Made by a program: the position numbers and the translations under genes. Positions 1 through 17,029 of a stretch of 64,000 nt of DNA are shown here, one piece after another. The notes below the pieces were generated by a model, which saw only the letters and a list, made by a program, of their open reading frames with translations, was not told the origin of the DNA and searched no databases. Position 1 is the stretch's first letter. Every line of letters starts with the position of its first letter. This DNA comes from Candidatus Falkowbacteria bacterium (GTDB lineage: Bacteria > Patescibacteriota > Patescibacteriia > Patescibacteriales > UBA12465), in assembly GCA_037134915.1 (NCBI GenBank), contig JBAXLJ010000001.1:229484-293483 (forward strand). The letters run 5' to 3'.

Positions 1-97
1 TCAGAACTTTAAAAAATAAGATTAAATTTGGTTAATTGCCAAGATAATCTATAAATAGGTTATTTTAGCAATTAATCAAATTGTTTAATTCTTAAAA
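1..97 (+). promoter_or_regulatory. Conserved structured cassette leader, copy L1 (truncated by window start)
   Basis: TCAGAACTTTAAAAAATAAG...; near-identical flanks to 776-883 and 16281-16389. Outer stem 27-39/68-80 (13 bp) and inner stem 44-50/57-63. Confidence 0.7.
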
Positions 98-106
98 TTG
101 TTAAAA

Positions 107-601
107 ATGGAAAGTAATTATTTAGTTTTGCCAATTGGCAAGATAAAAACCAAAAGTTTGGAGCCATGGTTTAAATGGTTAGGAAGACAGGGGTATGACG
201 CCTTTACCTCTTTTCAGGAAATAGTGGAATATTTTGAGCAACTAACTAAACCGTTGGGTCGCTCAGAAATAGTTTGTTATTCAGAGTCGAGTTATATTGA
301 ATCGCCAGATTTTCTGAAAGAAGAAGTACTCTTTTGTGTGAATTTCAATATTTGCAAATTAGATGACATGAACGCACATTTATTTGTGAAGTTTTTCATT
401 AATGGAACTGTTGAGATCATGGAAATTTATTTAGACGATTCAGTTTTACTTGGTCAAGTTCAAAATAATATAAAAAAACTTGATCATGTTATTGAGCAGC
501 ACCAAGAGACAAGCAAATTGTCGTGGAAAGAGTTCGTTAAACTGCACGGAGAAATTATGTCTGGTGTTTACAATGTAGAATTAGAAATGCCATCATTTTA
601 A
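107..601 (+). CDS. Hypothetical protein (cassette gene). ORF-track start 98 is TTG; first ATG is at 107.
   Basis: Intact ORF between leader L1 and repeat R1; no recognisable motif. Confidence 0.5.
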   Translation: MESNYLVLPIGKIKTKSLEPWFKWLGRQGYDAFTSFQEIVEYFEQLTKPLGRSEIVCYSESSYIESPDFLKEEVLFCVNFNICKLDDMNAHLFVKFFINGTVEIMEIYLDDSVLLGQVQNNIKKLDHVIEQHQETSKLSWKEFVKLHGEIMSGVYNVELEMPSF

Positions 602-705
602 TGCGATTTAGGTTAATGGTAATTTTTTAATTCTCTTTTTTCTTTGGACCTTAATTTATATAATTCAATATTATGTAAATTAGGGTCTTTTTTATTTTCT
701 TAAGA

Positions 706-775
706 CCATTCCAATTATGCCCCCCCTCTCCGCAGATTGACAGGAGTATACTAATATAGTATGCTTTTTTGTTGA
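706..775 (+). repeat. tRNA-Ser 3'-end-like cassette-boundary repeat R1
   Basis: ATTCCAATTATGCCCCCCCTCTCCGCAG + ATTGACA-N17-TATGCT / hairpin + TTTTTTGTTGA. Confidence 0.8.
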
Positions 776-883
776 TCAGAACTTTAAAAAATAGGATTAT
801 ATTTGGTTAATTGCCAAGTTCATCTGAAAAAGGTGTATTTAGTAATTAATCAAATTAGTAATAAACCTTAAAAATAAAAAGCC
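776..883 (+). promoter_or_regulatory. Conserved structured cassette leader, copy L2
   Basis: Outer stem 802-814/842-854 and inner stem 821-825/831-835; abuts R1 and ends at ATG 884. Confidence 0.7.
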
Positions 884-1453
884 ATGAGAATTATATCAAA
901 TGCCGAATTGCAGCAATTAGCTATGGTGATTAGTAAAAATGACATATCAGTTAGTCAGGTATTGGAGCTGATTAAAAAAAGAAATAAAGTGATTGACGTA
1001 ACTTCAATCGACATTGAATTAATTGTCGATTATAGCAAAAGTGTCGAGCAAGCTATTTCTGAAGGGAATTATGATATTAAAGAGAGTGATATTAACGCTA
1101 ATAATTTCCCCGTTGATCCGGAATTAATAGGAAAGACCGTAAAAGTAAAATCAAGATTATTTAATTTTGATGAACCACTCATTTCGCAGCGCGTTATCCG
1201 AGAGATGGACCAAGTCGATTACCGCCCCGCTAATTTAATGGAAATTCTTGCTTTTGGTGCAGCCCGTCCCGAGCTTCAAAGAGTAATTACAATTATAGCT
1301 TTTGGGTCACGTTGGGAAGACCATGATGGTTATTACTGTTTACCCGCTTTGCATGTTTGTAATAATAAGCGCTATCTAAATACAGCCCTTTTTGCCGAAA
1401 TGTTTACGTCTAGCTTATTCGCTCTTGGTATTCCCAAAGAATCGCCTAAGTAA
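884..1453 (+). CDS. Hypothetical protein (cassette gene)
   Basis: Intact 189-aa ORF directly after leader L2; no motif recognised. Confidence 0.5.
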   Translation: MRIISNAELQQLAMVISKNDISVSQVLELIKKRNKVIDVTSIDIELIVDYSKSVEQAISEGNYDIKESDINANNFPVDPELIGKTVKVKSRLFNFDEPLISQRVIREMDQVDYRPANLMEILAFGAARPELQRVITIIAFGSRWEDHDGYYCLPALHVCNNKRYLNTALFAEMFTSSLFALGIPKESPK

Positions 1454-1490
1454 TTAATTTTTTTTATTATTTTAATCTTTATATATAAAA

Positions 1491-2030
1491 ATGGAAACAA
1501 ATAGTGAAAAAAAATGGACGGAAAAAGATGGTATTATATATTTTTCTGTTACTTCCAATGGCGCTACTGGCGGCCAATGGACTAATGATTTAAAAATAAA
1601 AGGAGTTAGAGTAACCAATGACGCCAAAGAGATCCTGCATTCTGAAAATTTTAAGCCTACTAATGGTTATGTTTACAATATAGCTGTTATAAAGGGTGGA
1701 ATTTTCAGTGATAATTATCGCTTTATCGAAAGAATTCGCCAAGAAGCTCTACGTCACAAATTTTTTAATTCTGACGCAGAAGTAGCGTGTCTTATTAGAG
1801 AAAAATTTTTAAACGAAGACTTGGAGGCGATGGGGTTGCTTTGGATAATAGTAATGCATGAACCAATAAAAATTTCTTCTGATTATAATTTTCCTTCTTC
1901 TTGTCGCGGCAACCTTCTTTGTTCTTCTCATGGCGACCTTGGTCCATTATTGGAAACAGCCACTGATAAATCATTTATTAAGTGGAACAGTCTTCATGGA
2001 TTTGCTTTCTTGGTTTCGAAAACTTTATAA
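1491..2030 (+). CDS. Hypothetical protein (second gene of the same cassette)
   Basis: 179-aa ORF 37 nt after the previous stop with no repeat between them; followed by hairpin AGGGAG..CTCCCT + T-run and R2. Confidence 0.5.
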   Translation: METNSEKKWTEKDGIIYFSVTSNGATGGQWTNDLKIKGVRVTNDAKEILHSENFKPTNGYVYNIAVIKGGIFSDNYRFIERIRQEALRHKFFNSDAEVACLIREKFLNEDLEAMGLLWIIVMHEPIKISSDYNFPSSCRGNLLCSSHGDLGPLLETATDKSFIKWNSLHGFAFLVSKTL

Positions 2031-2119
2031 AAAAAATGACTCAGGGTTTATGATCTTAAAAATATTCGTGTAAAAGTATAGGGAGCTAGTAATAGTCTCC
2101 CTTTTATTTATATAAAACC

Positions 2120-2182
2120 GTTCCAACTTAAGTCCCGCTCTCCCCGCAGATTTAAATAGCCCAATTTTGTGGCTATTTTTTG
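2120..2182 (+). repeat. tRNA-Ser 3'-end-like cassette-boundary repeat R2
   Basis: GTTCCAACTTAAGTCCCGCTCTCCCCGCAG followed by hairpin ATAGCC..GGCTAT + T-run. Confidence 0.75.
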
Positions 2183-2223
2183 ATGGAGAGTTTATCGCTT
2201 TAGAGTGGCGTGCTATAATTTAA

Positions 2224-2493
2224 AATATCAATACCAATAAGATAAGTGAAATTCCTGATAATTTTTATAGGACCAGTATTAAAGCAATTATTTTCGATAA
2301 CAAACATTGACTATTATTTATTCAGGAGAATAATGGCTTGTGGGAGATGCCTGGAGGTGGTTTGGATTATGGCGAAACGCCGCAGGATTGTTTGGCTAGA
2401 GAAATCAAAGAGGAAATGGGGTCGGAAGCAATATATGTAAGCCGGCAGCCATTATACTTTGCTTCGGCTCTAAATATTGATGGCCGCTTTTAA
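2224..2493 (+). pseudogene. Nudix hydrolase remnant (no start codon, in-frame TGA at 2308-2310, C-terminally short)
   Basis: The frame of 2251 reads EIPDNFYRTSIKAIIFDNKH*LLFIQENNGLWEMPGGGLDYGETPQDCLAREIKEEMG. This holds a full Nudix box GX5EX7REUXEEXG. The ORF-track ORF 2246..2440 is a different frame of the same DNA. Confidence 0.75.
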
Positions 2494-2507
2494 TAATTTA
2501 TAATAAT

Positions 2508-2825
2508 ATGAAAAATTCAACCTTAGTTAAATGGGGCGCCACTCACGCTCTTGGGGTGTTGGCTTACATCTTTCTCTTGGCCACCTTTTTTAGTAAAGCC
2601 AACGATTTTTTTGGCAAAGCTGATCACAGCATAGTTAGTCCTATGGCCGCTTTAATGCTCTTTGTCTTTTCGTCTTTAGTAACTGGTGGACTAGTTTTAG
2701 GAAAACCAATTATGCTCTATCTGGATGGTCAAAAAAAAGAAGGAGTAAAATTATTATTTTTTACCGGCGCCAGTATATTCATTTTTATGCTTCTAACTTT
2801 TACAGTTTTATTATTACTAAAATAA
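2508..2825 (+). CDS. Small integral membrane protein (about 3 TM), hypothetical
   Basis: Hydrophobic segments throughout; hairpin AAGACTTC..GAAGTCTT + T-run follows. Confidence 0.55.
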   Translation: MKNSTLVKWGATHALGVLAYIFLLATFFSKANDFFGKADHSIVSPMAALMLFVFSSLVTGGLVLGKPIMLYLDGQKKEGVKLLFFTGASIFIFMLLTFTVLLLLK

Positions 2826-2897
2826 AAGGCCAGAATCATCTAAAAGACTTCGAAAAAGAAGTCTTTTTTGTTTATGTTAGTTTGGGTGTTGACATAA

Positions 2898-2944
2898 TTG
2901 TTAGAATAATATAACATATAGTATATGTTAATTAATTCTAACAA
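2898..2944. promoter_or_regulatory. 47-bp nested palindrome (candidate operator) overlapping a TTGACA promoter
   Basis: TTGTTAGAAT(2898-2907)/ATTCTAACAA(2935-2944) plus the perfect inner palindrome TAACATATA-G-TATATGTTA (2912-2930). Both are centred on 2921. TTGACA lies at 2889-2894. Confidence 0.6.
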
Positions 2945-3494
2945 ATTTATGACTCTAAAAAATTATCAAAAAATTAAACTCGTTTTTGTTTTTTTTCTGG
3001 CACTTATTTTTAGCCAGACAATCTATTACAAGAATTACCTTATTCCCATCGCGCTTATGATTGTTAGTTCCTTGATTCTGATGTGGCTTCGCCGTCGTGT
3101 TAAGGGGGTGGTGGCTGACGAAAGGGATTATGCAACCGGAGGCAAATCAGCTCTTTTAACTATTCAGGTCTATGCTTGGATAGCCTCAATTTCTATGTTT
3201 ATCCTTTATGCTTTGCGTGATGCAAATCCTAGTTACGAACCGATTGCGATGACGCTCGCTTTTTCAACCTGTATTTTAATGCTTCTATATGCGGTTATTT
3301 TTAGATATTTTGATAATTTTAAATTTTCTGATAAAAAAACCATTTATTCCTTTTTGATTTTTATTCTTTTCTTAGTCTTAGCTGTTTTCTCTATTCGTTT
3401 ATTCTCGGGTGAGGATAATTGGGTGTGTCGAAATGGCGCTTGGCAAAAACATGGGCAACCTTCATTCCCAGCGCCCAGCACTGAATGTAAATAA
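2925..3494 (+). CDS. Multi-pass membrane protein, partner of the downstream XRE regulator (DUF2178-like arrangement). True start may be ATG 2949.
   Basis: 4-5 hydrophobic helices; stop lies 2 nt before the HTH gene. ATG 2925 lies inside the palindrome. Confidence 0.55.
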
Positions 3495-3496
3495 TT

Positions 3497-3688
3497 ATGA
3501 AAAATAACATCCGCGAACTCAGGACCAGTTTAAATTTAACTCAAGAAGAGTTGGCTCAGAAAGCCGGAGTCAGAAGAGAAACTATTGTCTTTCTGGAACA
3601 GGGTAAATATAACCCCTCCTTAAATTTAGCTTACGAAGTTTCTAAAGCCCTCAAGTCTTCAATTGATGAAGTATTTATTTTTGAATAA
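3497..3688 (+). CDS. XRE-family helix-turn-helix transcriptional regulator (63 aa)
   Basis: [39 protein letters not shown] is a classic Cro/CI HTH. Confidence 0.85.
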
Positions 3689-3747
3689 ACTCTCCCTTTA
3701 AAATTTATTAAAATAAAAACGCCCAGTTTTTAAACCGGGCGTGTTTT

Positions 3748-4434
3748 TTATTTTTGGGGAGCGATTAGACCTACGACTGAATGCTTATCCGGATAAATTT
3801 TAAATCCCGGGCGACTAATCCAGAGACCGCCGATAAATTCCGGCGCTTCTTGTGAAGCAGAACAAAAAAATACCAAGCGATAAGTCATCCGCCAATAAGA
3901 CGCTCCAATAGAAGCTAGCGGCATGTGAAATTTCTGTAAATAGGTGGTTTCTTCGTGGATGGACTTGATGATTGAACCTCTGGTGGCAAAGCCTTTATGA
4001 TTGCTGAAGATTCTCCATTCAGGATACCAAATTTTAGTTAAGTTTTTATCATTTTTTATACAAAACGGCTGACTGAAATCAAGTAATGTCTCGTAGTCGT
4101 TGGCACGGACTCTTCGCCATAGGCCAAGCTTTTCTCCAAGAGGGTAATCGATTTTAAAGTTAGAGTCTCTTGACAGTTCAATTTTATTTTTTAACCAGTG
4201 TTTTTCTGCACCCAAGAGTGAGCCAGCTAAATCAAAAATTATTTCCGCCGATTTTAAACCATTACCATAACTAATTAAATTTAACTGTCCATTAGGGGCG
4301 CAGTCAATTTCGGCCAAAAAATTTTGCTTTTTTTCTGGTTGCAGATTGATTAACAATTCCTTAGCCTGATTTTCATAAGACCTGTCCAACTCTAATATTT
4401 CATTAGAGTTTTTAAATAGATTTTTCTTTTCCAT
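3748..4434 (-). CDS. Hypothetical protein
   Basis: Intact 228-aa ORF; no motif recognised. Confidence 0.45.
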   Translation of the reverse strand: MEKKNLFKNSNEILELDRSYENQAKELLINLQPEKKQNFLAEIDCAPNGQLNLISYGNGLKSAEIIFDLAGSLLGAEKHWLKNKIELSRDSNFKIDYPLGEKLGLWRRVRANDYETLLDFSQPFCIKNDKNLTKIWYPEWRIFSNHKGFATRGSIIKSIHEETTYLQKFHMPLASIGASYWRMTYRLVFFCSASQEAPEFIGGLWISRPGFKIYPDKHSVVGLIAPQK

Positions 4435-4729
4435 GACACCTAATTTTTAAAATTAAACATTAAACGCTATTTGATGATAAAGTTGTTAAAAAACAAAAAA
4501 TCGGATAATATTCCGATTTGAATTGATTGATAATTTGCTGGCCGCCTTTTAGCGGGCTTCTTTTTTATCAACAAAACCAAACCGGATATTCATCCAGCAA
4601 TTCATATTATTATTTTGGTTGATTTTGTTCGATAATTTAAACATGGGATTATTTTAGCACATTTTAAGTAAAAGACAAGACCTTTTAATTATTATATCCC
4701 CCAAGAAACTTGTGTTATAATATAAAAAT

Positions 4730-5401
4730 ATGGAAAAAAATGTGAAAATTGAACCAGAATGGGCGGCGGTTTTAAGCGAAGTTTTTAAAACCGAACAGTT
4801 TAAACAGCTGGCTGATTTTGTTCGGGGTGAGTATTTAAGTAATAAAATTTTTCCCAAACCGGAACATGTTTTTACTGCCTTTTGGCTTACCCCATTTTCT
4901 AAAGTTAAGGTGGTTATTTTAGGTCAGGATCCTTATCATGGTGATGGTCAAGCTCACGGTTTATGTTTTTCTGTGCCTAGTGGCCTGCCGGTGCCGCCAT
5001 CTTTAAAAAATATTTATAAAGAAATTGAAAGTGATTTAGGCATAAATAAAGATTTTAAATCGGGTAATTTAGAAGCTTGGGCTAGTCAAGGAGTTTTTCT
5101 TTTAAATGCCATCTTAACAGTTGTTGCCCATAATCCCGCTTCCCATCAGAATAAGGGTTGGGAAAAATTTACCGATGCAGTTATTAAAACCATCTCGGAT
5201 AAAAAGGAGCACGTAGTTTTTATTTTATGGGGCAATTATGCTCGCAGTAAGAAAAATTTAATTGATGGCCATAAGCATTTGATTTTAGAAGCGCCGCACC
5301 CCTCGCCTTTATCGGCTTACTCAGGATTTTTTGGCTGCCGTCATTTTTCTAAAAGCAACGATTATTTAGCGGCTTGCGGCCAGGAAAAAATCGCTTGGTA
5401 G
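4730..5401 (+). CDS. ung: Uracil-DNA glycosylase, family 1
   Basis: GQDPYH water-activating loop and HPSPLS motif; length 223 aa. Confidence 0.93.
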   Translation: MEKNVKIEPEWAAVLSEVFKTEQFKQLADFVRGEYLSNKIFPKPEHVFTAFWLTPFSKVKVVILGQDPYHGDGQAHGLCFSVPSGLPVPPSLKNIYKEIESDLGINKDFKSGNLEAWASQGVFLLNAILTVVAHNPASHQNKGWEKFTDAVIKTISDKKEHVVFILWGNYARSKKNLIDGHKHLILEAPHPSPLSAYSGFFGCRHFSKSNDYLAACGQEKIAW

Positions 5402-5460
5402 AAATGCTTTATCTAAAGTAATTTGTTATACTGAAAGTAATAATAATTTATCTTTTGTTT

Positions 5461-6432
5461 ATGAACAAAAAAATAGAAGTTTCTCTTAGTCCACAAACCA
5501 TCAGAACGATTCTTTTAGTAGCGTTGGGAATTTTTTTTATCTGGAAATTATCGGACATTTTTATTCTACTAATTACCGCCATCATGGTGGCCTCCGCTTT
5601 AGATCCGGCAGTTAAATGGTTAAACAAAAAGCTATCTTTGACTTTATCGGCCGCTTTAGTAGTTATCGGCCTTATTCTGCCTTTAATTTATGTCGTGGGC
5701 GCGGTGATCCCTGATTTTATCAGCCAATTTCCGGCCATCTCTGAAAGAATCACTGGCACTTTAAGTGCTGCTAGTTTCTTACCGCCATTTTTGCGTCAAT
5801 TAGATTTTTCTCAATATTTTCAAAATGGCAGTTCTTATATTTTAGAATCAACTAAAATGATTGGTGATTTCTTTTTTCAAGCCATCACTTTTATTTTTTT
5901 AGTTTTTTATTTACTAATCGACGGCAAAGATTTGCACCGTTTAGTCGCTTTATCAATCTCTAGCGGTAAACGTAAACAAGTAGAAAAAATATCAGCCGAA
6001 CTCGGCCGAATTAGTGGTCAATATATTAGAGGCAACTTACTGATTTCCTTAATTTGTACTTTAGTAACTCTTGCCGGTTTACTACTTTTAAATATTCCTT
6101 ATGCTTTACCTCTGGCTATTTTTGCTGGAGTCTTGGATTTGTTACCGCTTATTGGGAGTACCATCGGCGCTATTCCGGCAGTCATTCTTGGTTTTACAAT
6201 TTCGCCACTGACCGGGTTGCTGACTATTGTTTTGTTTGGCACTTATCAGGCGATTGAAAACGATATCTTGGCGCCTAATATTTATAATAAGGTTTTAAAC
6301 TTATTACCATTCCTAAGTTTTATCGCCGTTATTGTCGGTTCAATTATTTTTGGTGTCGCCGGCGCTTTCTTGGCTTTGCCGATTGCCGCTGGTATCCCGA
6401 CAATTATTAAATACTTTGAAAAAAGTAAATAA
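5461..6432 (+). CDS. AI-2E/PerM (UPF0118) family transporter
   Basis: Topology of about 8 TM; C-terminal LDLLPLIGSTIGAIPA / FLALPIAA pattern typical of the family. ATG at 5461. Confidence 0.75.
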   Translation: MNKKIEVSLSPQTIRTILLVALGIFFIWKLSDIFILLITAIMVASALDPAVKWLNKKLSLTLSAALVVIGLILPLIYVVGAVIPDFISQFPAISERITGTLSAASFLPPFLRQLDFSQYFQNGSSYILESTKMIGDFFFQAITFIFLVFYLLIDGKDLHRLVALSISSGKRKQVEKISAELGRISGQYIRGNLLISLICTLVTLAGLLLLNIPYALPLAIFAGVLDLLPLIGSTIGAIPAVILGFTISPLTGLLTIVLFGTYQAIENDILAPNIYNKVLNLLPFLSFIAVIVGSIIFGVAGAFLALPIAAGIPTIIKYFEKSK

Positions 6433-6442
6433 TTAATTCTCT

Positions 6443-9400
6443 CTATTTATTATTTCCAGTCCTCTTTAATTTATTCCAGCCGTAGTGCCGGCCTTTTATG
6501 ATAGCTAAAATTGATTTATAGGTGATTACATACATAAACTGACGATAGAAAAATCTCTGAATCAGAATTAACCACATTAATTTTTTAGGTTTTTTCTCTA
6601 GGGTAAAAGCCAAGAGGGAGCCGCAGATATCCATGACGGTAAACATAAGATAACCGACGAAGATGGCACCGAAGTCACCACGAATAATTGATAGCAAAAA
6701 GACTAAATCGCCGATAGGGGATAAGACGGGGAAGATGATTTGGAAAAATAGCATATTAGGCAGAGCGACCCAGCCTAAGTTACCTTTAAAGAATAATTTA
6801 CGATTTTTATATAGACATTGATAAGTGCCATAACTCCAACGGAAGCGTTGTTTGGCTAGGCCACTAATAGTTTCCGGGGCTTCCGTTCGGCTTCTGGCTT
6901 CAGGGGCGTAAACAATCACGCCGCCGTTAGCTAGCAGTCTTAAAGTTAAGTCAGCGTCTTCAGTTAAAGTATCGGTGCCGTAACCGCCTACTGCTAAAAC
7001 TTTATCACGTCGCCAAGCGCCGGTCGCACCCGGAACTACACTAATGCAATTAAGTTCATCAAAAGCTCGGCGATCAAAATTTTGGGTGGTAATATATTCC
7101 AAGGCCTGGAAACCGGTGATTAAATTACGCACATTACCCACCTCTACATTACCGCAAACGGCATCAACTTTGGCATCGGCAAAAGGTTTAGTCAGTTCGT
7201 TGATGGTTTCTGGTAAAAGAATGGTATCACCATCAATTGTGATAATTAAATCATATTTTGCTTCCGTAAAACCTAAGTTTAAAGCTGATGATTTACCGCC
7301 ATTAGGTTTTTTAATTAATCTAATGCGCTCATCTTGCTTCATGAATTTTTCAACTTCAGCGCTAGTGTTGTCAGTTGAGCCATCGTCAATGACTAAAATC
7401 TCTAAGTTTTTCTTGGTACTTTTTTGAAGGGCGACTAAAGTGTAGGCAACGGTTTTTTCTTCGTTATAACAAGGAACGATAACGGTGACTGGTTCAGTAA
7501 AATCTTTTTCTTGACGCTTGCGGTAGTGCTTAGCCGATCTAATTACCATCGCACCTAGAAATAAGATCCGCAAGATGGCAATAACAGTTGTTAAAATAAA
7601 TAACCACGAAATAATTATCCAGCCCCAACGCAAACTGAAATTCCAAATAGAAGTTATTTCCACAAAAAATAATTCACCTCCAGAAAGTGGGGGGTTGATT
7701 TGGTCCCGACTTAAACCGGCAGCGGTATCAAAATTTACAAAAGTATAACCTTCAGCTTTTAATTTAGGAATTAGAATTTTTAGAGCAGCCACGGTTTGGG
7801 AGCGGTCTCCGCCGGCATCGTGCATTACAATGACGTGGTTTTGGGAGTCAGATACTTGATCTAAAACGTTACTGATAATTTTATCGACGCCTGGTTTTTG
7901 CCAATCTTCAGAGTCAATATTAGCACCGGCAATTATATAACCAAGCTTATTAACCGAAGAGATGGCTTTTAGCTGCTCGGGGGTACTTGGAGTTGAGTCG
8001 GTGTCGTAAGGCGGTCTAAAAAGAATGGTTCGTTTATTAGTTTCCGATTCAATTACTCTTTGGGTTTGGTTTAACTCTAAATCTAAACGACCGCGGGAGA
8101 TAGTGGAAATGTCGGGATGCAGATACGTGTGATTACCAAACATAAATCCGTCTTTAGCCATTTGACTAACCACATTAGGATTTCTTTGAGCCTGATCACC
8201 GACTAAGAAGAAGGTGGCTGGAATATTATTATCTTTTAAAACTTTGGTAATTTGCGGCGTCCAAATTTCATCAGGGCCATCATCAAAAGTTAAAATTATT
8301 TGTTTGTCAGGAAAAACTTGACCGACAGCGCCTAAATCGTAACCCGCGGGAATCTTATCGTAGAGAGCGTAATCAATACTGCCGTCGGAATCAGTGGTAA
8401 TTTGGAGGTGACCATTGGCTCGATCACGTTCTAATTTAAATAATTCACTTTGATTTTCAAAAGTAATGGAATTTAACTTGGGGGAATCGGTAAAACTTTG
8501 ACCAGTGGCCTGTTTGTTAAATACCTGCCAATAGGATTCATCTTCATTGCCTAAACGCCACAGGGCAACGCCGGCTACCTGACTTTTTTTGGCAATTAAA
8601 ACTTCATTCCAGGCTGTAGTCCCGTTTAAAAACCAAACTTGGTGTTCGTTGTCGCTGTCATCTTTGTAGCTAAAGTACATATTAAAACCGGAATCAGAAT
8701 TCATTTCTGGTTCGGCTCCCGCTTCACTGGCCAAAGACATGACTTCGTTAAATTTTAAAGATTCGGCTGACGTAGTGGTGCCAATAGTCCAGTCATAACC
8801 GTAAGCTCCTAGAGAAATAATTAGTTTACTTTTGGGTACTGAGTTAATGCCTTGATCAACCACATCTTTGAACCAGTCAGTACTGGCAATCGGCCCGGGG
8901 TCACCGCCAGGGTAGTGCTCGTCATAAGCCATGAGCACGACGTAATCAACTATTTGTCCGATATACTCAAAGTCGTAAGCCGGATCGTTAGCGGTCACAT
9001 CAACGGTTACAAGTTTATTATTTTTATGCAGGATTTCGGTTAGAGTTTTAAGAAATTCCAGATAAGCGTCTCTATCTTCAGGTTTTAAATCTTCTAAGTC
9101 GACATTAATGCCGGCCGCCTTTGACTTTATAACTAAGTCAGCTAAGGCTCCGGCTAAGCAAGAGCTAGTTTCGGAGTTGTGCAAAATAATGCTAGTTTCG
9201 GGACCATACCAGCGGCCTAAATAACCATTAGTAAATCGGGGAATAATCGCCGCCTTGCTAGATGAGCTGATAGCCTTGGTAATATTTGAATCTTCTTTTT
9301 CTAAAACGGAACAACTGGCACTATTTAAAAAATACCAATCAGGAAAAACAATATCCGTGTCGCTAGCGTGTCTTTCAAATGATTGCAGACTAGACGGATC

Positions 9401-9730
9401 GTCTTGAATTAAAAAAGCACTTGATAAGAAGTTAGTTGAACTGGCTAGATTTTGATTATTAATAACAGTCAGCGGAGTCGAAGTGGCCAAATTAGTCTTA
9501 GTTACCTTTTTTGTTTTTGGGGCTAATTTTTTTTCCTGAGCAATAATATTAGCTTTAATGTGTGAGGCTCTTTTGATATTATCTTGCCTTTCTTGAACAC
9601 TAGCTAGGGGCGGATTAACCATTAAACTGGCAATCATACCTCCTAAAAGGATGGCTAGGATGAGGGGAATGCCAATGAAGACCCATTTGGCTCTTTTCCA
9701 ACGTTTTTGTGAGAAATCTTCGAATATCAT
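6443..9730 (-). CDS. Triple-fusion exopolysaccharide enzyme: TM - GH18-like domain - NodB polysaccharide deacetylase - TM - family-2 processive glycosyltransferase (PgaC/IcaA/MatB-like)
   Basis: GINVDLEDL (GH18 DxxDxDxE-like); TFDDGP and HTYLHPD (NodB); VIVPCYNEE, DDGSTDNT, DGDT and QRFRWSYG (GT2 Q(R/Q)xRW). Confidence 0.85.
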   Translation of the reverse strand: MIFEDFSQKRWKRAKWVFIGIPLILAILLGGMIASLMVNPPLASVQERQDNIKRASHIKANIIAQEKKLAPKTKKVTKTNLATSTPLTVINNQNLASSTNFLSSAFLIQDDPSSLQSFERHASDTDIVFPDWYFLNSASCSVLEKEDSNITKAISSSSKAAIIPRFTNGYLGRWYGPETSIILHNSETSSCLAGALADLVIKSKAAGINVDLEDLKPEDRDAYLEFLKTLTEILHKNNKLVTVDVTANDPAYDFEYIGQIVDYVVLMAYDEHYPGGDPGPIASTDWFKDVVDQGINSVPKSKLIISLGAYGYDWTIGTTTSAESLKFNEVMSLASEAGAEPEMNSDSGFNMYFSYKDDSDNEHQVWFLNGTTAWNEVLIAKKSQVAGVALWRLGNEDESYWQVFNKQATGQSFTDSPKLNSITFENQSELFKLERDRANGHLQITTDSDGSIDYALYDKIPAGYDLGAVGQVFPDKQIILTFDDGPDEIWTPQITKVLKDNNIPATFFLVGDQAQRNPNVVSQMAKDGFMFGNHTYLHPDISTISRGRLDLELNQTQRVIESETNKRTILFRPPYDTDSTPSTPEQLKAISSVNKLGYIIAGANIDSEDWQKPGVDKIISNVLDQVSDSQNHVIVMHDAGGDRSQTVAALKILIPKLKAEGYTFVNFDTAAGLSRDQINPPLSGGELFFVEITSIWNFSLRWGWIIISWLFILTTVIAILRILFLGAMVIRSAKHYRKRQEKDFTEPVTVIVPCYNEEKTVAYTLVALQKSTKKNLEILVIDDGSTDNTSAEVEKFMKQDERIRLIKKPNGGKSSALNLGFTEAKYDLIITIDGDTILLPETINELTKPFADAKVDAVCGNVEVGNVRNLITGFQALEYITTQNFDRRAFDELNCISVVPGATGAWRRDKVLAVGGYGTDTLTEDADLTLRLLANGGVIVYAPEARSRTEAPETISGLAKQRFRWSYGTYQCLYKNRKLFFKGNLGWVALPNMLFFQIIFPVLSPIGDLVFLLSIIRGDFGAIFVGYLMFTVMDICGSLLAFTLEKKPKKLMWLILIQRFFYRQFMYVITYKSILAIIKGRHYGWNKLKRTGNNK

Positions 9731-9890
9731 AAGAGTTTAATTGATTAAATTAGCTTACATTATTATATATTATATATAGGGGGTAGCTAAAAAGCAATAT
9801 GAAATTAAAAATCTTTTTAAACAAAAAAAGCCTCTTTATTCGCCAAAAGGCGGAGAGACTTTTTATAATACTTAGTATTTTTTGTTATTT

Positions 9891-10415
9891 TTAGGCGTGA
9901 CCTAAAGTTTTTTCGCCTTCCTGCCAGTCTAAAGGGCATAAATCGCCGCTTTGAATAGCTTTTAAGACGCGTAGGGTTTCAGTGACAGAACGTCCAACTG
10001 AACCAGTCGACACGACAATATATTTGATCAGACCTTCGGGGTCAATAATAAATAAACCTCTTTCGGCTGAACCATCGTTTTCATTAAGAACTCCATAAGC
10101 TTTAGCTAAAGCTTGGGTCGTGTCAGCGAGGACGGGATATTTTATTTCCGGCAGATCTTTTTCTAACCAATTCTTGTGTGACCACTCTGAATCGGTGGAA
10201 GCGGCCAAAATTTCACAATTTAAATCTTTAAAATCAGCTTCATGTTTAGCAAATCCTCGGAGCTCCGTCGGGCAGACGAAAGTAAAGTCGCGAGGGTAAA
10301 AAAAGAGCACTAGCCATTTTCCGGAATAATCCGCTAAGCTGAGGTCTTTGAATTCGCCTTGATGATAGGATTTTATTTTAGTAAAATCTGGGGCCTTGGT
10401 ATTAGTGTTTAACAT
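9891..10415 (-). CDS. Peroxiredoxin (AhpC/Prx1 type)
   Basis: FTFVCPTE peroxidatic Cys motif; C-terminal resolving Cys (DLCPLDW). Confidence 0.9.
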   Translation of the reverse strand: MLNTNTKAPDFTKIKSYHQGEFKDLSLADYSGKWLVLFFYPRDFTFVCPTELRGFAKHEADFKDLNCEILAASTDSEWSHKNWLEKDLPEIKYPVLADTTQALAKAYGVLNENDGSAERGLFIIDPEGLIKYIVVSTGSVGRSVTETLRVLKAIQSGDLCPLDWQEGEKTLGHA

Positions 10416-10427
10416 ATCGTTAGGGGT

Positions 10428-10841
10428 TTATAAATAATAGATGATATCAGTTTTTTTAATTTTCTGGCCCATTATTTTAGTGGGTAATTTCAGTTTTTGG
10501 TTTCCTCCTAAATCATAGACTTTGCCTTGTTTCGTATCAACGACATGGCAATGAGTTTCTAACTTAGCGTCATAGCGATTAGGAGCTCCTGCGAGGGGGA
10601 TTTCGATTATCAAACCGAGTTTCTGAAATTGAATCAGATTTTTATAGACAGTAGCCAGGGAAATATTTGTAAATTTGTTTTTCACTTGTTCGTAAATATC
10701 CTGAGCTTGGGGATGACTGCAAGAAGAAGCGACAATTCGGAAGATTTCTAGCTTCTGTGGCGTTAAGGGTAGACCCTGATTACGAACAGCTTGCCGAAAA
10801 TTATCTAAGCGCTGGGTTATTTCTTGCTGACTGATAGTCAT
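10428..10841 (-). CDS. Fur-family transcriptional regulator (PerR-like by context)
   Basis: Winged-helix region ...SLATVYKNL... and a His/Cys cluster ETHCHVVD. Lies 12 nt upstream of the peroxiredoxin on the same strand. Lacks C-terminal CxxC pairs. Confidence 0.7.
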   Translation of the reverse strand: MTISQQEITQRLDNFRQAVRNQGLPLTPQKLEIFRIVASSCSHPQAQDIYEQVKNKFTNISLATVYKNLIQFQKLGLIIEIPLAGAPNRYDAKLETHCHVVDTKQGKVYDLGGNQKLKLPTKIMGQKIKKTDIIYYL

Positions 10842-10988
10842 ATTTATTTAGATGATAATTAATATCAATTAATAACTATTCTCCATTATATAGTAAGCGC
10901 CAAACTTTGTCAAGCCTTTAGTATTAGATATAAAAAAGCTGATAATTAATTATCAGCTTTTTTAAGCCAAGCCTTCATTTAAAACGTC

Positions 10989-12949: not shown

Positions 12950-13038
12950 TTTGGTTAAACCTTGACATATTGCATTTAAAAGGGTAAAATTATTCTTATC
13001 GTAAATTAACAATAAACTAAAAAATAGGAGAGGAAGCT

Positions 13039-13512
13039 ATGGAGGGACAAGTGACCGAAGTGAAAAAAAATGTCTTTAAAATTGTAATGAAAACTGAGCT
13101 GATTATCAACTATGACCAGCCAGTAAGTGAGATTGCTTTACCAAAAAAAGTGCGAGATGTTAATCGCGGCCTTTACAAGGTAAAGATTGAAGAAACTGGT
13201 GAAAAACCAGTCGTCGTCGTTCTAATTGATCTTGGACCGGAGGTCTGTCATAAAACCGCTAAAATGGCTATGGAAAAAGCGGGCATTAGTCAGGCCGGGG
13301 TTCACGAAATTGTCCATTTTGCTTCGGTTTTACCGGATTTACCGGAAACTAAATTTTATATTTCCTCACTCAGAGAGGAGTCTAAACACGGTCCGTTGGA
13401 ACTAGTTCCGACGATCTGTGTGTATGGCAAAAATTCGGTAAACATTTCCCTAGGATTAAGGGATGATTTACCACTACTAAAAACATATTTTCTCGGCATC
13501 GAGGATAACTAA
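13039..13512 (+). CDS. Hypothetical protein
   Basis: 157-aa ORF with AGGAGAGG Shine-Dalgarno sequence upstream; no motif recognised. Confidence 0.45.
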   Translation: MEGQVTEVKKNVFKIVMKTELIINYDQPVSEIALPKKVRDVNRGLYKVKIEETGEKPVVVVLIDLGPEVCHKTAKMAMEKAGISQAGVHEIVHFASVLPDLPETKFYISSLREESKHGPLELVPTICVYGKNSVNISLGLRDDLPLLKTYFLGIEDN

Positions 13513-13521
13513 TAAGCGTTA

Positions 13522-13567
13522 CCCCATCTTTCAAGCAATTAAGCTTTGAAAGGTGGGGTTTTGTTTT
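13522..13567 (+). terminator. Intrinsic terminator
   Basis: CCCCATCTTTCAAGC / GCTTTGAAAGGTGGGG stem followed by TTTTGTTTT. Confidence 0.8.
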
Positions 13568-13623
13568 ATAGTGATTAAAAGTGTTGATTAGCTAATAATC
13601 TTATGCTAATCTATATTCGACCA

Positions 13624-13710
13624 GGAGAGGTGCCAGAGCGGTCGAATGGAACAGTCTTGAAAACTGTCGTACCTGAAAGGGTACCGAGGGTTCGAATCCC
13701 TCCCTCTCCG
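13624..13710 (+). tRNA. tRNA-Ser (anticodon UGA), CCA not encoded
   Basis: Acceptor GGAGAGG/CCTCTCC; anticodon stem ACAGT/ACTGT with loop CTTGAAA; long variable arm; T-arm GAGGG-TTCGAAT-CCCTC. Confidence 0.92.
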
Positions 13711-13721
13711 CAATCACATTG

Positions 13722-13746
13722 AACAAGGCTAAAACCTTGTTTTTTG
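13722..13746 (+). terminator. tRNA terminator hairpin
   Basis: ACAAGG-CTAAAA-CCTTGT followed by TTTTT. Confidence 0.75.
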
Positions 13747-13765
13747 GTGCCTTTTTTAAGTTTTT

Positions 13766-13806
13766 CAGTTCGAACCTGGCACAGGGAGTGCGGGACTGTT
13801 TTTGGT
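13766..13806 (+). repeat. Degenerate T-loop-containing repeat R3 (weakest copy)
   Basis: CAGTTCGAACCTGGCACAGGGAGTGCGGGACTG + TTTTT. GTTCGAA is shared with the other copies, but the rest is G-rich rather than C-rich. Confidence 0.4.
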
Positions 13807-13942
13807 AAAATGCTTATTTTTTAGCCATTTTAAGGTAAAATTCTCTGGTTCGAATACAAAAAATTTATTGATTCATATTATTTGTTTTATTTTGTTTGTG
13901 GTAAAATATATAAATCAAATTAATTTAAGTTTATTAAATTTT

Positions 13943-14284
13943 ATGCAAGAAATTACAATAAAAGAAGCACAAACAAGAGTAGATGATTGGATTAAAACAA
14001 TTGGCGTTCGTTATTTTTCAGAGTTAACTAATCTGGGTCAATTGACCGAGGAAGTTGGCGAGGTCGCCCGTATTATAACTCGAACATATGGAGATCAAAG
14101 TTTTAAAAAATCAGATGAAGGCCATAATCTAGGGGATGAATTAGCTGATGTTTTGTTTGTTGTTATCTGTCTTGCTAATCAAACAGGGGTTGATTTAACT
14201 GAAGCTCTGCAAAAAAATCTTGATAAAAAAACGAAACGAGATTCCGATAGGCATCAAAATAATGAAAAATTAAAAAATAACTAA
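13943..14284 (+). CDS. MazG-like nucleoside triphosphate pyrophosphohydrolase (cassette gene). ORF-track start 13802 is unlikely.
   Basis: EEVGEVARII ... GDELADVLFVVICLAN, the paired EExxE/ExxD helices of small all-alpha MazG/YpjD proteins. Confidence 0.72.
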   Translation: MQEITIKEAQTRVDDWIKTIGVRYFSELTNLGQLTEEVGEVARIITRTYGDQSFKKSDEGHNLGDELADVLFVVICLANQTGVDLTEALQKNLDKKTKRDSDRHQNNEKLKNN

Positions 14285-14328: not shown

Positions 14329-14394
14329 GTTCGAACAAAGTCCCTCACTCCCCGCAGACAGGAAAAAGCAGCTTTAATTAGCTGTTTTTTTGTT
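14329..14394 (+). repeat. tRNA-Ser 3'-end-like cassette-boundary repeat R4
   Basis: GTTCGAACAAAGTCCCTCACTCCCCGCAG followed by hairpin AGCAGC..GCTGT + TTTTTTTGTT. Confidence 0.8.
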
Positions 14395-14414
14395 ATGTAT
14401 AAGCTTAAATATTG

Positions 14415-14445
14415 AGTTCCAAAGTGGTTCGAATTGACTTAGAGT
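14415..14445 (+). repeat. Extra tandem T-loop-like fragments (R4b)
   Basis: GTTCCAAAGTGGTTCGAATTGAC. GGTTCGAAT is identical to the tRNA T-loop region. Confidence 0.45.
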
Positions 14446-14591
14446 AGTAGGAATGGATATCGTTAAAAAGGTATTATTAAATTTAATATTAGGGAAAATT
14501 ATTTAGTTCTAACTTAAAACCTTGTTTATAAAAATATGCTAAATTCGGAGAAGTTTTAATACTTTGTAGCGGTATGATATAATATGTATAT

Positions 14592-15272
14592 ATGAAAAAA
14601 ATTATTATATTAGGTGCTAGTGATGGGCTCGGTAAGGCAATCGCTAGTTTATGCCTAAAAGAAAAAATAGAAGTGATTAATGTAAGTAGGACAGCTTGCG
14701 ACTTACCAGGCGTTGTTAATCTTACTTGCGATTTATCTATAGAAGAAGATATCAATAATACGAGTAATTTAATAAAAGAAAAGTATAATAATTTTGATGC
14801 TATTATCAATTGTGTTGCTATTGTAGCTATGGAGAAAATTAATGAAATTACATATTCTAAATTTGAAAGAGCATTTAAAATTAATACTATCGCTCCATTG
14901 TATTTATTATCTCTACTATTTGATAACATTGTAAAAAATGAAGCCGATATATTAAATATTGGCACGACAGCAGATTTAAAAGCTGGATTCAATGATCAAT
15001 TAGCATATACCTCAACTAAATATGGCCTAAGAGGCGGATCGTATAATATTGGATTAGAATTAGCAAAAACAAAAAGTAGAATGATATATGTTCACTGCGG
15101 TGGTATGAATACCAAAATGCACGAAAAGGATTATGGATTGAAAATAGATAATCCAGAAGAATGGATGAACCCACTCGATGTAGCTGATATAATTTTGTAT
15201 TTACTCAAATTGCCAAAACAAATAGAAATAACAGAAATTACTATTAGTCGTAAAAAAAGAAGATTGGGATAA
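14592..15272 (+). CDS. Short-chain dehydrogenase/reductase (SDR) family oxidoreductase (cassette gene)
   Basis: N-terminal ILGASDGLGKAIA (TGxxxGxG-type) and catalytic YTSTK (YxxxK). Confidence 0.8.
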   Translation: MKKIIILGASDGLGKAIASLCLKEKIEVINVSRTACDLPGVVNLTCDLSIEEDINNTSNLIKEKYNNFDAIINCVAIVAMEKINEITYSKFERAFKINTIAPLYLLSLLFDNIVKNEADILNIGTTADLKAGFNDQLAYTSTKYGLRGGSYNIGLELAKTKSRMIYVHCGGMNTKMHEKDYGLKIDNPEEWMNPLDVADIILYLLKLPKQIEITEITISRKKRRLG

Positions 15273-15388
15273 AATTTAGTTTTATAGCTTTATTATAAAA
15301 ACGTTTCAACTATCTGTCTTGCCTTCAAGCATTTTTAATAAAAACCAAACTACATATTTAGCTAATCATACAAATAATTTATCAAATT

Positions 15389-15456
15389 AGTTCGAATAGC
15401 GTCCCTAACACCCCGCCAATTGACAAAAGTATACCAAGATGGTATGCTTTTTTGTT
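15389..15456 (+). repeat. tRNA-Ser 3'-end-like cassette-boundary repeat R5
   Basis: GTTCGAATAGCGTCCCTAACACCCCGCC; TTGACA(15420-15425)-N17-TATGCT; hairpin AGTATACCA/TGGTATGCT; TTTTTTGTT. Confidence 0.85.
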
Positions 15457-15505
15457 ATTTTAATAATTAGTATAAAAACTATTTAATCCTTAAAATAAAC
15501 TAATA

Positions 15506-15760
15506 ATGAGTAAATTAAAAAAATGTCAGGATTGTGGCGCAGCTCCAGGTCAACCCCATAAAGATGGTTGCGATATCGAACGTTGTAGTGTTTGTGGAAA
15601 ACAACATATACAGTGTGGATGCGAGGGGCACGATAAAGCTTTTGCTAGATGGACTGGTTTTTGGCCTGGTTCTATTGAATCGGAAAATCTAGGCATAGAT
15701 TTAAACGAGTTTTACAGACAGGGTTTTCACAAAATATTTTTTGTAAAACCGGAAGTTTGA
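15506..15760 (+). CDS. Cys-rich small protein, probable zinc-binding (cassette gene)
   Basis: CQDCG..C..CSVCG..CGC pattern in 84 aa. Confidence 0.5.
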   Translation: MSKLKKCQDCGAAPGQPHKDGCDIERCSVCGKQHIQCGCEGHDKAFARWTGFWPGSIESENLGIDLNEFYRQGFHKIFFVKPEV

Positions 15761-15821
15761 AAAAACTATTAATTAGGGGGGGGGTGTTCAGTAATGAACA
15801 CCTTTTTTATTTGTTAAAACC

Positions 15822-15887
15822 GTTCTAACTACGTCCCACTCTTTCCGCACATTGACAAAAGTATACTAATGTGGTATACTTCTTGTT
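15822..15887 (+). repeat. tRNA-Ser 3'-end-like cassette-boundary repeat R6
   Basis: GTTCTAACTACGTCCCACTCTTTCCGCAC; ATTGACA-N17-TATACT; ..CTTGTT. Confidence 0.85.
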
Positions 15888-15927
15888 AAGAAAGATATTT
15901 AACATTAACATAAAAAAACCATAAGTC

Positions 15928-16131
15928 ATGATTCAAACAGTTCTTCTTTCGTTTTTGTATGGTGCGGTTGTATTTGGGGCCACTGCTTTATTCCTAGGAA
16001 AGAAAAAAGCTAGTAAATTACCTGGTGGTGCTATTTTAGCAGCCTTTATTTTAGCTCCATGGTGGGCTGCTTTAATTGGCGCTTTAGTAGGGCACTTTGG
16101 CGCTGCTTATTTAGTTAATAAATTTCTTTAA
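15928..16131 (+). CDS. Small 2-TM membrane protein (cassette gene)
   Basis: 67 aa with two Gly/Ala-rich hydrophobic helices. Confidence 0.45.
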   Translation: MIQTVLLSFLYGAVVFGATALFLGKKKASKLPGGAILAAFILAPWWAALIGALVGHFGAAYLVNKFL

Positions 16132-16209
16132 TTGAACCTTGGTTCATAAAAGGAGGTCTTAAAAATAGATCTCCTTTTTTCTTTTTAATTAACACTTTTA
16201 TATATCACT

Positions 16210-16280
16210 GTTCCAGTTACACCCCCCTCCCTCTCCGCTTATTGACAAAAGTATGCCAAGATGGTATGCTTTTTTGTTGA
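16210..16280 (+). repeat. tRNA-Ser 3'-end-like cassette-boundary repeat R7 (best match to the tRNA)
   Basis: GTTCCAGTTACACCCCCCTCCCTCTCCGCT (tRNA: ATCCCTCCCTCTCCGCA); ATTGACA-N17-TATGCT; TTTTTTGTTGA. Confidence 0.88.
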
Positions 16281-16965: not shown

Positions 16966-17029
16966 TCAAGAATATATTCTAGATTTTGCACTAAAATAAT
17001 AAAATTATTAATAAATTTAGTTTTAATAT

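Follow-up and report, generated by a model that had tools for sequence, protein, structure and literature searches.

The stretch analysed here, 64,000 nucleotides of a Candidatus Falkowbacteria contig (JBAXLJ010000001.1, positions 229,484 to 293,483 of the forward strand; hereafter the window), begins inside a row of small genes that are separated by a repeat, which we call R, and some of which are preceded by a second conserved sequence of about 100 nt, which we call L. The window holds two such rows, array 1 at positions 1 to about 2200, which is the subject of this study, and array 2 at 14329-17945. Array 1 contains three open reading frames (ORFs), of which ORF1 and ORF2 are 100% identical to the consecutive proteins WCK59_01185 and WCK59_01190 of a Candidatus Falkowbacteria metagenome-assembled genome (MAG), on a contig of 314,016 bp. 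The features of the two arrays and of the tRNA gene near array 2 are as follows.

1-106, plus strand: L leader, first copy, the predicted structured 5' untranslated region (UTR) of ORF1; fold of -27.7 kcal/mol, z = -6.8; included in the 59-copy covariation alignment
107-601, plus strand: ORF1, a cargo gene of 164 aa (MAG locus tag WCK59_01185; 100% identical to P0001)
646-698, plus strand: intrinsic terminator of the ORF1 cassette from a terminator scan, a 19-bp hairpin with a T-run; fold z = -6.65
708-775, plus strand: R1 as a whole, the junction between two cassettes
708-733, plus strand: left half of R1, a pseudo-tRNA-Ser 3' end (ATTCCAATTATGCCCCCCCTCTCCGC); a putative P-type (attP-like) half-site by its spacing of 26 nt from GTTC to CCGC
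737-775, plus strand: right half of R1, a promoter TTGACA-17-TATGCT overlapping a hairpin and T-run, predicted to drive L, ORF2 and ORF3
776-883, plus strand: L leader, second copy; sense fold z = -4.7, antisense z = -0.07
884-1453, plus strand: ORF2, a cargo gene of 189 aa (WCK59_01190; 100% identical to P0006)
1491-2030, plus strand: ORF3, 179 aa, second gene of the ORF2 unit; no family match
2081-2108, plus strand: terminator hairpin of the ORF2-ORF3 unit (GGGAGCTAGTAATAGTCTCCC and a T-run); fold z = -3.5
2120-2181, plus strand: R2 as a whole, the junction closing array 1
2120-2147, plus strand: left half of R2, a pseudo-tRNA-Ser 3' end (GTTCCAACTTAAGTCCCGCTCTCCCCGC); putative P-type by its spacing of 28 nt
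2148-2219, plus strand: right flank of R2, a hairpin/terminator (AGATTTAAATAGCCC..GGCTATTTTTT) and then an extended -10 element (TGCTATAAT); fold z = -4.0
13624-13711, plus strand: tRNA-Ser(UGA), the sole tRNA in the window, with the genuine spacing of 22 nt and followed by its own terminator
14329-17945, plus strand: array 2, junctions with cargo ORFs between them
14329-14398, 15390-15456, 15822-15887, 16210-16280, 16896-16965 and ~17891-17945, plus strand: junctions of array 2, by repeat profile or pattern
16281-16389, plus strand: L leader of array 2, directly after the junction 16210-16280
16390-16821: ORF of array 2

Both repeats of array 1 belong to the same family as those of array 2, as an earlier note on this DNA had claimed. 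A profile of four array-2 repeats (15377-16967), built without R1 and R2, matched R1 at 697-773 (E=8.6e-15, 50 bits) and R2 at 2109-2165 (E=9.9e-6, 21 bits), the latter in its left, tRNA-like part only. The family in the window comprises R1, R2 and the repeats at 14329, 15390, 15822, 16210, 16896 and ~17891. Consensus patterns of R and of L gave three matches each in the window, with 0.00 expected for either in 100 shuffles; the three L copies lie at 1-106, 776-883 and 16281-16389, and a profile of 59 L sequences found no other copy there. The R and L segment at 720-887 is 85% identical to that at 16224-16393. The att-like repeats bound tandem units without a recombinase, namely 1-775, 776-2181 and five more in array 2. 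The unit 776-2181 carries two ORFs with no repeat in between, and the two arrays are separated by core genes for UDG, an AI-2E transporter, a 1095-aa GT2/GH18 protein, Prx, Fur, LexA and HIT; the earlier note had described both points correctly. The GC content of the cassette regions is 0.30-0.33, below most of the remaining window (~0.34-0.42). Hairpins like the terminator at 2081-2108 precede the repeats at 15822, 16210 and 16896, and the terminator of ORF1 is conserved in three related loci (L003, L004 and L064; such numbers denote metagenome contigs, none of which is from the same strain as the window).

The left half of R resembles the T-loop and the acceptor 3' strand of tRNA-Ser (GTTCNAA...CCC...CTCYCCGCA), and the right half reads ATTGACA-N17-TATRCT in five window copies, R1 included. 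In R1 this promoter is the best sigma70-type match of the region (10/12), and the hairpin and T-run that it overlaps fold with z = -4.7. In R2 and in the repeats at 14329 and ~17891, a different hairpin, resembling a terminator, stands after the tRNA-like half, and in R2 the extended -10 element comes next. Flanks homologous to that of R2 follow pseudo-tRNA fragments in L003, L051, L061 and L011. In three window cassettes R is present and L is absent. The core CTCYCCGCA is common to the isoacceptors UGA, GGA, GCU and CGA; the assignment of R1 and R2 to one tRNA-Ser was dropped for this reason, and the comparison suggested earlier, of R1 and R2 with their closest tRNA, does not discriminate. 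The dyad symmetry of R as a full recombinase site was also dropped as evidence, the mirrored CAGAAC lying 23-28 nt right of the centre in L038 and ~42 nt right of it, at the start of L, in R1. Scans of viral contigs for R and L gave no match, nor did a comparison of R/L DNA with phage records. Isolated GTTCGAA(C/T) motifs occur at ~13769 and ~13850, 3' of tRNA-Ser(UGA), and 3' of the 14329 junction (GAGTTCCAAAGTGGTTCGAAT), within the regions 13712-13940 and 14405-14450; the arrangement at the 14329 junction recurs in L030 after tRNA-Ser(GCU) and after each junction, and these motifs could be right-hand half-site motifs. A slippage-prone run of eight G at 15776-15783 forms the 5' arm of the terminator hairpin preceding the 15822 junction.

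Transcription of the ORF1 mRNA is predicted to start a few bases before position 1, with the promoter itself off the window. A contig of the same strain from Logan (SRR12676973) is 100% identical to window 764-10960 and ends at a 31-mer common to the R-L copies, so that assemblies do break at such repeats; the start of the window inside an R-L unit is probably an assembly break. This contig was the sole match to an exact look-up of ORF2, and look-ups of ORF1, with either of two start codons, and of the ORF at 16390-16821 gave no match. The earlier note let the window start exactly with the first base of L; this is partly circular, since the boundary of L had been taken from the window start. 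R and L form one continuous unit. The presence of a further R-type element just upstream, which the same note expected, is very probable, because TTGACA-N17-TATAYT precedes L in 4/4 retrievable orthologues of the ORF1 cassette (L003, L004, L047 and L064).

We scanned metagenome contigs with a pattern of the L hairpin and obtained 58 contigs; in all, 65 copies of L were found, and 59 distinct ones were aligned. In nearly all 58 contigs TTGACA-N17-TAT(G/A)CTAT(A/T)AT stands before L, always at the same distance, and an ATG lies 26-35 nt 3' of L in 64 of the 65 copies (those with a callable ORF). The 64 L-led proteins fall into 40 unrelated clusters; they are mostly small, many look like membrane or secreted proteins, and almost none has a Pfam domain. 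The consensus of the 59 copies, ~100 nt long, consists of an outer 5-bp helix and an interrupted 22-bp inner helix. In the alignment 97% of cells are paired and 10 of the 27 pairs show compensatory changes; none of 500 shuffles reached any of the five measures, and slid controls were 22-53% paired. The search pattern itself fixed part of the inner helix, which is invariant for that reason alone, and the covarying pairs fall outside that part. Folding is strand-specific (z = -4.7 to -6.8 in sense, -0.07 in antisense) and G-U pairs are frequent. In addition, a copy found independently through a protein homologue, in L063, has three adjacent pairs changed on both sides. We found no family for L in Rfam 15, where only the tRNA of the window passes its gathering score; with a relaxed threshold over 1-950 the best matches stayed far under gathering, for example throat-1 with 24.7 against 124.4 bits. 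L is a well-supported RNA motif and apparently an undescribed one.

Judged from sequence and predicted structure, L is a transcribed, structured cis-acting 5' leader with its predicted promoter in the right half of R, so that the repeats would double as expression modules, an aspect absent from the earlier note. The long 5'-proximal hairpin stops just short of the ribosome-binding site and leaves it unsequestered, which favours a role of L as an mRNA-stabilising or expression leader, or as a regulator-binding site. In L063, at 1795-1875, a 16-nt direct repeat (CGTTAACCAAATTAGT) that falls within the 3' arm of L flanks a 71-aa ORF, and the ORF2 homologue of that contig keeps just the 3' part of the leader; the repeat suggests recombination inside L.

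The spacing between GTTC in the T-loop motif and CCGC at the acceptor end was measured over all sequences analysed. Genuine tRNAs have 22 nt in 11 of 11 cases, and 20 fragments on 14 contigs, representing at least nine sequence types, have exactly 27 nt. The window copies have 26 (R1), 28 (R2), 27, 27, 27, 29 and 30 nt, that is, +4 to +8 with a mode of +5. A true partial tRNA copy was seen only at a tyrosine-integrase element in L004, and the window fragments differ from every genuine tRNA by an insertion. Because decay would not keep a constant 5-nt insertion while the sequence drifts, the pseudo-tRNAs are unlikely to be decayed tRNA ends; instead of 3' copies of tRNA-Ser(UGA), the R repeats carry a distinct class of fragment with a fixed +5-nt spacing. 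Rutherford et al. proposed for serine integrases, with the LI integrase of the Listeria A118 type as the model, that the same zinc-ribbon-domain motif occurs in attP and attB and lies 5 bp nearer the centre in attB (PMC3783163). Since the +5 shift matches this rule, the left half of R can be interpreted as a half-site of the P type. Its outer (zinc-ribbon-domain) motif would be GTTCNAA and its inner one CTCYCCGCA, and the P-type sites would carry the outer motif 5 bp further out than the tRNA does.

A recombinase of the corresponding class accompanies L in the relatives. A protein of ~490 aa with the domains Resolvase, Recombinase and Zn_ribbon_recom, a large serine recombinase (LSR), is encoded on 21 of the 58 L-bearing contigs. 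In 10 contigs its gene lies whole between a tRNA and L, on the opposite strand; wherever the 3' end of the gene is on the contig, it reaches a tRNA 3' end (Tyr, Val, Ala or Ser) or a pseudo-tRNA, and the gene diverges from the promoter, L and ORF. A tRNA on the same strand lies at most 3.5 kb upstream in 25 of the 65 L copies (Tyr, Ser-UGA, Ser-GGA, Val, Ala and His), many contigs being cut short. A complete element of ~3 kb, in L006, comprises tRNA-Tyr, the LSR gene, promoter, L and ORF269, a terminator, and a pseudo-tRNA-Tyr with a copy of the terminator hairpin of the tRNA. The putative sites of the LSR group at tRNA-Tyr and tRNA-Val are distributed as follows.

attB: unoccupied tRNA-Val in L026
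attP: pseudo-tRNA adjoining the LSR gene in L020
attL: nine contigs, at tRNA-Tyr, Val-TAC, Val-GAC and Ala
attR: L006 and L018

The difference between 22 and 27 nt recurs, as counted by hand, in this independent group. The LSR of the serine tRNA group is ~60% identical to that of the Tyr/Val group and abuts a genuine tRNA-Ser(GGA) in L022 and a 27-nt pseudo-tRNA-Ser in L038; the core CTCTCCGCAGATT is common to the L022 and L038 sites, R1 and R2. Sites seen in the Ser group are attL (L022), attP-like (L038) and attR-like (L051 and L003), and the unoccupied attB is presumed to be at window 13624-13760. The LSR is 25-27% identical to known phage serine integrases and belongs to a very large family, with 3515 relatives at E<=1e-30, the named ones mostly from Patescibacteria. 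From the geometry of the sites and their linkage to the enzyme, we infer that the left half of R is an attP-type half-site of LSRs that use tRNA 3' ends as attB.

Two further observations were made on the LSR elements. The same B' flank and L-led 68-aa gene stand after an unoccupied tRNA-Val(GAC) in L026 and, in L006, after the attR of an element with its attL at tRNA-Tyr; the LSR has either joined two tRNA loci or can use several tRNAs interchangeably. In L044 the first element ends in an attR-like junction that is immediately followed by a second, divergent LSR gene (5677-7128; 30% identity to the first LSR), which suggests tandem elements with different recombinases.

The cassettes of array 1 have counterparts in other genomes, in other surroundings. 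Homologues of ORF1 with 55-80% identity occur in four other genomes, always behind promoter and L. The most similar, 80% identical, is in L003, where an intact tRNA-Ser(UGA) is followed in turn by the ATTGACA hairpin, L, the ORF1 homologue, a terminator, a 27-nt pseudo-tRNA and a flank of the R2 type; this pseudo-tRNA repeats the tRNA end and its flank exactly over 20 nt (CCCACCCTCTCCGCAGATTG). In L004 the ORF1 cassette stands behind the tyrosine-integrase element and a protease gene, in L064 it stands beside mscL, and no tRNA was seen in L047 or L064. An ORF2 homologue, 66% identical, is found in L063 in a differently composed array with a different partner ORF after it; directly before it stands an L-led homologue of the 67-aa ORF at window 15928-16131. 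Another ORF2 homologue, in L046, is 33% identical. In the close relative L011 (70-90% amino acid identity) at least four cassettes form an array with a reverse-transcriptase gene on one side and Prx-Fur-LexA on the other, unlike the positions in the window. L030 has three units behind tRNA-Ser(GCU), with junctions of the same type as the 14329 repeat, and L053 and L055 have single L cassettes directly after tRNA-Ser(GGA), a P-type fragment closing the unit of L055. The differing positions and combinations in L003, L063, L011, L030 and L064 indicate that cassettes were gained, lost and recombined among relatives. The earlier suggestion of a multi-locus or rearranged platform fits this picture, since L011, L063 and L064 carry arrays elsewhere and the junction flanks are typical of different tRNA-Ser loci. 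We found no synteny between the 11-kb spacer of the window and L038 or L044, whose arrays lie upstream of tRNA-Ser(UGA). As for the cargo, ORF1-3 matched no family in Pfam, PHROG or PADLOC, and AlphaFold models of the cargo were poor (pLDDT 47 and 35).

Two of these contigs carry other elements next to the cassettes. The first 7.7 kb of L004 (1-7712) are an element in tRNA-Ser(UGA) with a 19-nt direct repeat (TTCGAATCCCTCCCTCTCC), which encodes a tyrosine integrase, a rolling-circle Rep (REP_ORF2-G2P) and zinc-ribbon proteins and has TTGTGACG repeats close to each of its ends (135-174 and 7539-7578). Possibly it is a prophage, inovirus-like or plasmid-like, of a bacterium of the candidate phyla radiation (CPR). 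In L011 the 348-aa reverse transcriptase (12986-14032, minus strand; YADD motif) lies directly upstream of the array, with a non-coding stretch of ~250 nt after it, and could be a retron or another reverse-transcriptase system at the island border.

On this evidence we consider it probable, at roughly 0.6, that window 1-2200 is the distal end of a cassette island without a recombinase, belonging to a family of integrative elements widespread in CPR/Patescibacteria. Each unit forms a complete cassette for expression, with a sigma70-type promoter (the right half of R), L of ~100 nt, one or two ORFs, a terminator and a pseudo-tRNA-Ser 3' end of ~27 nt, which is the left half of the following R. 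R1 would be an internal junction, a P-type site with a promoter, and R2 the terminal junction, where a P-type site is joined to a terminator/promoter flank with ordinary genes beyond it; the island head would lie outside the window. The array probably grew at its tRNA-proximal end, where an LSR acting in trans would have inserted the cassettes, the source being an autonomous ~3-kb element with the order tRNA, LSR, promoter-L-cargo, terminator and P-site; that an LSR rather than another enzyme made the window junctions, that cassettes were mobilised in trans, and the order of head insertion are each inferred. Insertions, or a later rearrangement between att sites, would have put array 1 ~11 kb upstream of tRNA-Ser(UGA). 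For the DNA upstream of position 1 the orthologues allow some estimates. A promoter almost certainly stands immediately upstream, probably with a CTCYCCGCA core before it; a genuine tRNA-Ser at the island head within a few kb is possible, if somewhat against expectation, and a recombinase gene within 5 kb upstream is doubtful. The head tRNA-Ser, if present, is probably not UGA, since tRNA-Ser(UGA) sits at 13624.

Several findings weigh against this account. Among the window ORFs tested by Pfam there was neither an LSR nor a tyrosine recombinase, tblastn of the L006 LSR and the L004 integrase against the window gave no match, and none of the best 120 of the 3515 LSR relatives lies on a 314-kb contig, the length of the MAG contig. 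R1 and R2 are each one base off the modal 27 nt and may be decayed or inactive sites. The right halves of the window repeats (ATTGACAAAAGTATAC...) resemble the LSR-proximal P' arm (ATTGTCAATATCG...) over only ~12 nt, and at 14-20 nt the core that the sites share exceeds what is usual for LSRs. Furthermore, tRNA-Ser(UGA) of the window is followed by its own terminator and no cassette junction, and array 2 therefore departs from the textbook picture of head insertion. The reaction of canonical LSRs is confined to attP with attB and destroys attB, so a tandem array needs relaxed site choice or another route. Site choice might be relaxed, as was shown for the Ccr enzymes that move tandem cassettes lacking a recombinase (PMC11470126); mixed-type cassette sites, with a P left half and a B'-like right half, might regenerate an attB-like head; or homologous recombination between R/L modules might build the array, as proposed for the promoter early stem-loop (PeSL) cassettes of phages, and the 16-nt repeat within L of L063 hints at this route.

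This last route leads to an explanation in which no site-specific recombination is involved, and conserved terminator, promoter and leader modules were shuffled by homologous or illegitimate recombination in the manner of PeSL cassettes (PMC2839356), the likeness to tRNA being incidental or regulatory. Such an origin would account for the promoter/hairpin and L being conserved ahead of unrelated ORFs, for the bracketed 71-aa ORF of L063, and for the three window cassettes with R and without L, in which the modules assort independently. However, it leaves unexplained the fixed 27-nt geometry over at least nine sequence variants, the exact tRNA direct repeat in L003, and the linkage of the modules to tRNA 3' ends and LSR genes. 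We regard it as unlikely, and homologous or illegitimate recombination may well operate beside site-specific recombination.

The main alternative is a classical tyrosine-integrase island, the model implicit in the earlier note and that of the tycheposons, in which R repeats are partial tRNA-Ser copies from successive integrations of elements that then decayed. The enzyme class would suit a tandem array, for which accretion is natural (10.1101/2020.12.28.424599), shared cores of 14-20 nt are typical of its att sites, and L004 supplies an actual case, its 7.7-kb element with Phage_integrase and Rep in tRNA-Ser(UGA), flanked by a 19-nt direct repeat, with the ORF1 cassette 2 kb beyond. The attR of that element, however, keeps the spacing and the sequence of the genuine tRNA, whereas the window repeats are all at +4 to +8; a tblastn homologue of the integrase was found in 0 of the 58 L-bearing contigs, against 21 with an LSR, and no integrase fragments lie between the window cassettes. 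This alternative seems to us quite unlikely. An integron or integron-like platform with IntI, attI and attC, in which L or R would be attC, is effectively refuted: small, mostly single-ORF cassettes of one orientation do stand between repeats of 150-250 nt, and L forms a long, imperfect hairpin on one strand only, but no window ORF tested matched Phage_integrase, each cassette has its own promoter (junctions with TTGACA-N17-TATRCT or an extended -10), L has the position of a 5' UTR, a fixed distance after the promoter and with the ATG 26-35 nt further on, reading showed no RYYYAAC...GTTRRRY pair on either side of R or L, and three junctions have no L.

Returning to the cassette island with LSR-type sites, a more far-reaching version of it can be formulated, to which we give a modest probability. 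CPR bacteria may possess an integron-like gene capture built on serine chemistry, in which LSRs read the T-loop and acceptor strand of a tRNA as attB and insert circles of 0.4-3 kb with a '+5' site; single-gene cassettes lacking a recombinase would ride on the same reaction at a regenerated head, their ORFs would be expressed through the portable promoter and L, and window 1-2200 would be the oldest end of an array.

The arrangement has likenesses to several known systems. In the staphylococcal cassette chromosome (SCC), many cassettes lack a recombinase and are moved by Ccr, the LSR of a neighbouring cassette (PMC11470126). The SCC of staphylococci, including SCCmec, pseudo-SCC, ACME and tandem defence cassettes, resembles the present arrays in having tandem accessory cassettes downstream of one conserved site with att repeats between them. 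The target there is rlmH, and here it is a tRNA 3' end (T-loop and acceptor strand). In addition, the cassettes here are far smaller (0.4-1.4 kb, one or two ORFs), have a conserved promoter and in many cases a leader RNA, and the LSR of the relatives is a single gene, with none found in the window; the mobility of the present cassettes is putative.

In the case of the tycheposons of Prochlorococcus, 910 of 937 elements have tyrosine recombinases, and replication modules are carried (10.1101/2020.12.28.424599). Their islands, like several of the related loci here, lie beside tRNA genes, including tRNA-Ser-UGA, with tRNA-like pieces between elements, remnants without integrase and a streamlined host, and new elements push older ones further in. 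The partial tRNAs of tycheposons are true copies, in contrast to the fixed 5-nt insertion here; the associated enzyme here is an LSR, the autonomous element is ~3 kb long with no replication genes seen, and promoter and leader precede the cargo. No Pfam domain of replication hallmark proteins or integrases was found in the cassette ORFs or the other window ORFs tested.

Compared with the attP/attB model of serine integrases, the shared outer motif is likewise shifted by 5 bp, with GTTCNAA at 22 nt (tRNA, B-type) and at 27 nt (P-type), but the identical core is much longer than in classical LSR sites (14-20 nt), the dyad symmetry of the right half is weak, and the sites here are predicted ones. 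Integrons share small cassettes of one orientation with mostly unknown genes, arrays that can persist without a recombinase, as in clusters of attC sites lacking an integron integrase (CALIN), and possible head insertion; they differ in that no IntI, attI or attC was found here, and the present cassettes have their own promoters and terminators and tRNA-like junctions. In T4-type phages, a composite terminator/promoter motif, PeSL, flanks small unknown ORFs and marks modular shuffling (PMC2839356, PMC4122927). The composite terminator/promoter motif beside small ORFs of unknown function is common to both systems; the shuffling of PeSL cassettes is thought to be driven by homology and takes place in phage genomes, with no tRNA-like site, linked recombinase or long structured leader.

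Islands beside tRNAs with partial tRNA repeats (tycheposons) and tandem cassettes driven by LSRs (SCC) are thus already known. In the literature we found nothing on LSR mini-elements targeting tRNA tails in CPR bacteria, on +5 pseudo-tRNA sites, on very small cassettes with their own promoter and without a recombinase, or on the L RNA, and these four features appear to be undescribed.

Some further features of the window were recorded outside the arrays. Directly after R2, at 2246-2493, a gene looks broken into two short overlapping ORFs; in the Logan contig a NUDIX match in this region is confined to a 48-aa product, and this could be a pseudogene where the island ends. Between fur and lexA, at 10931-10964, there is a perfect palindrome of 34 nt, where the Logan contig of the same strain ends; it may be a bidirectional terminator or an operator. 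A DUF2178 protein, compared with genome contigs, gave one distant Shapirobacteria locus, which shows no synteny. Towards the other end, 45796-51320 and 58477-64000 are a 5.5-kb duplicate with 99.93% identity (3 mismatches and 1 gap), the second copy reaching the window end; it holds a FemAB-family gene and, among others, four paralogues of 137-175 aa that are weakly similar to a pilin-like gene of L003 (type IV, N_methyl), and is either a recent segmental duplication with copies ~12.7 kb apart or an assembly artefact. Between the two copies, at 54901-59283, an ORF of 1460 aa contains internal DNA repeats of ~170-216 nt with 78-82% identity (55216-55385, 56511-56726 and 57600-57815), and a gene for an AbiEii-type toxin (53863-54633, minus strand) lies just upstream of it.

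The spacing rule of 22 and 27 nt would be a natural example of an attB/attP geometry that was proposed from one crystal structure, and the 22-nt and 27-nt sites provide many predicted att pairs for genome-engineering tests. Pseudo-tRNA pieces of this kind should not be annotated as decayed tRNAs. L, as a mark of putatively mobile cargo genes, might be used as a probe to find such islands. CPR/Patescibacteria have tiny genomes and, to our knowledge, no dedicated gene-capture machinery has been described for them. If the reading proposed here is true, LSRs that dock on tRNA tails and leave behind strings of single genes ready to be expressed would be a concrete route for the flexible gene pool of CPR bacteria.

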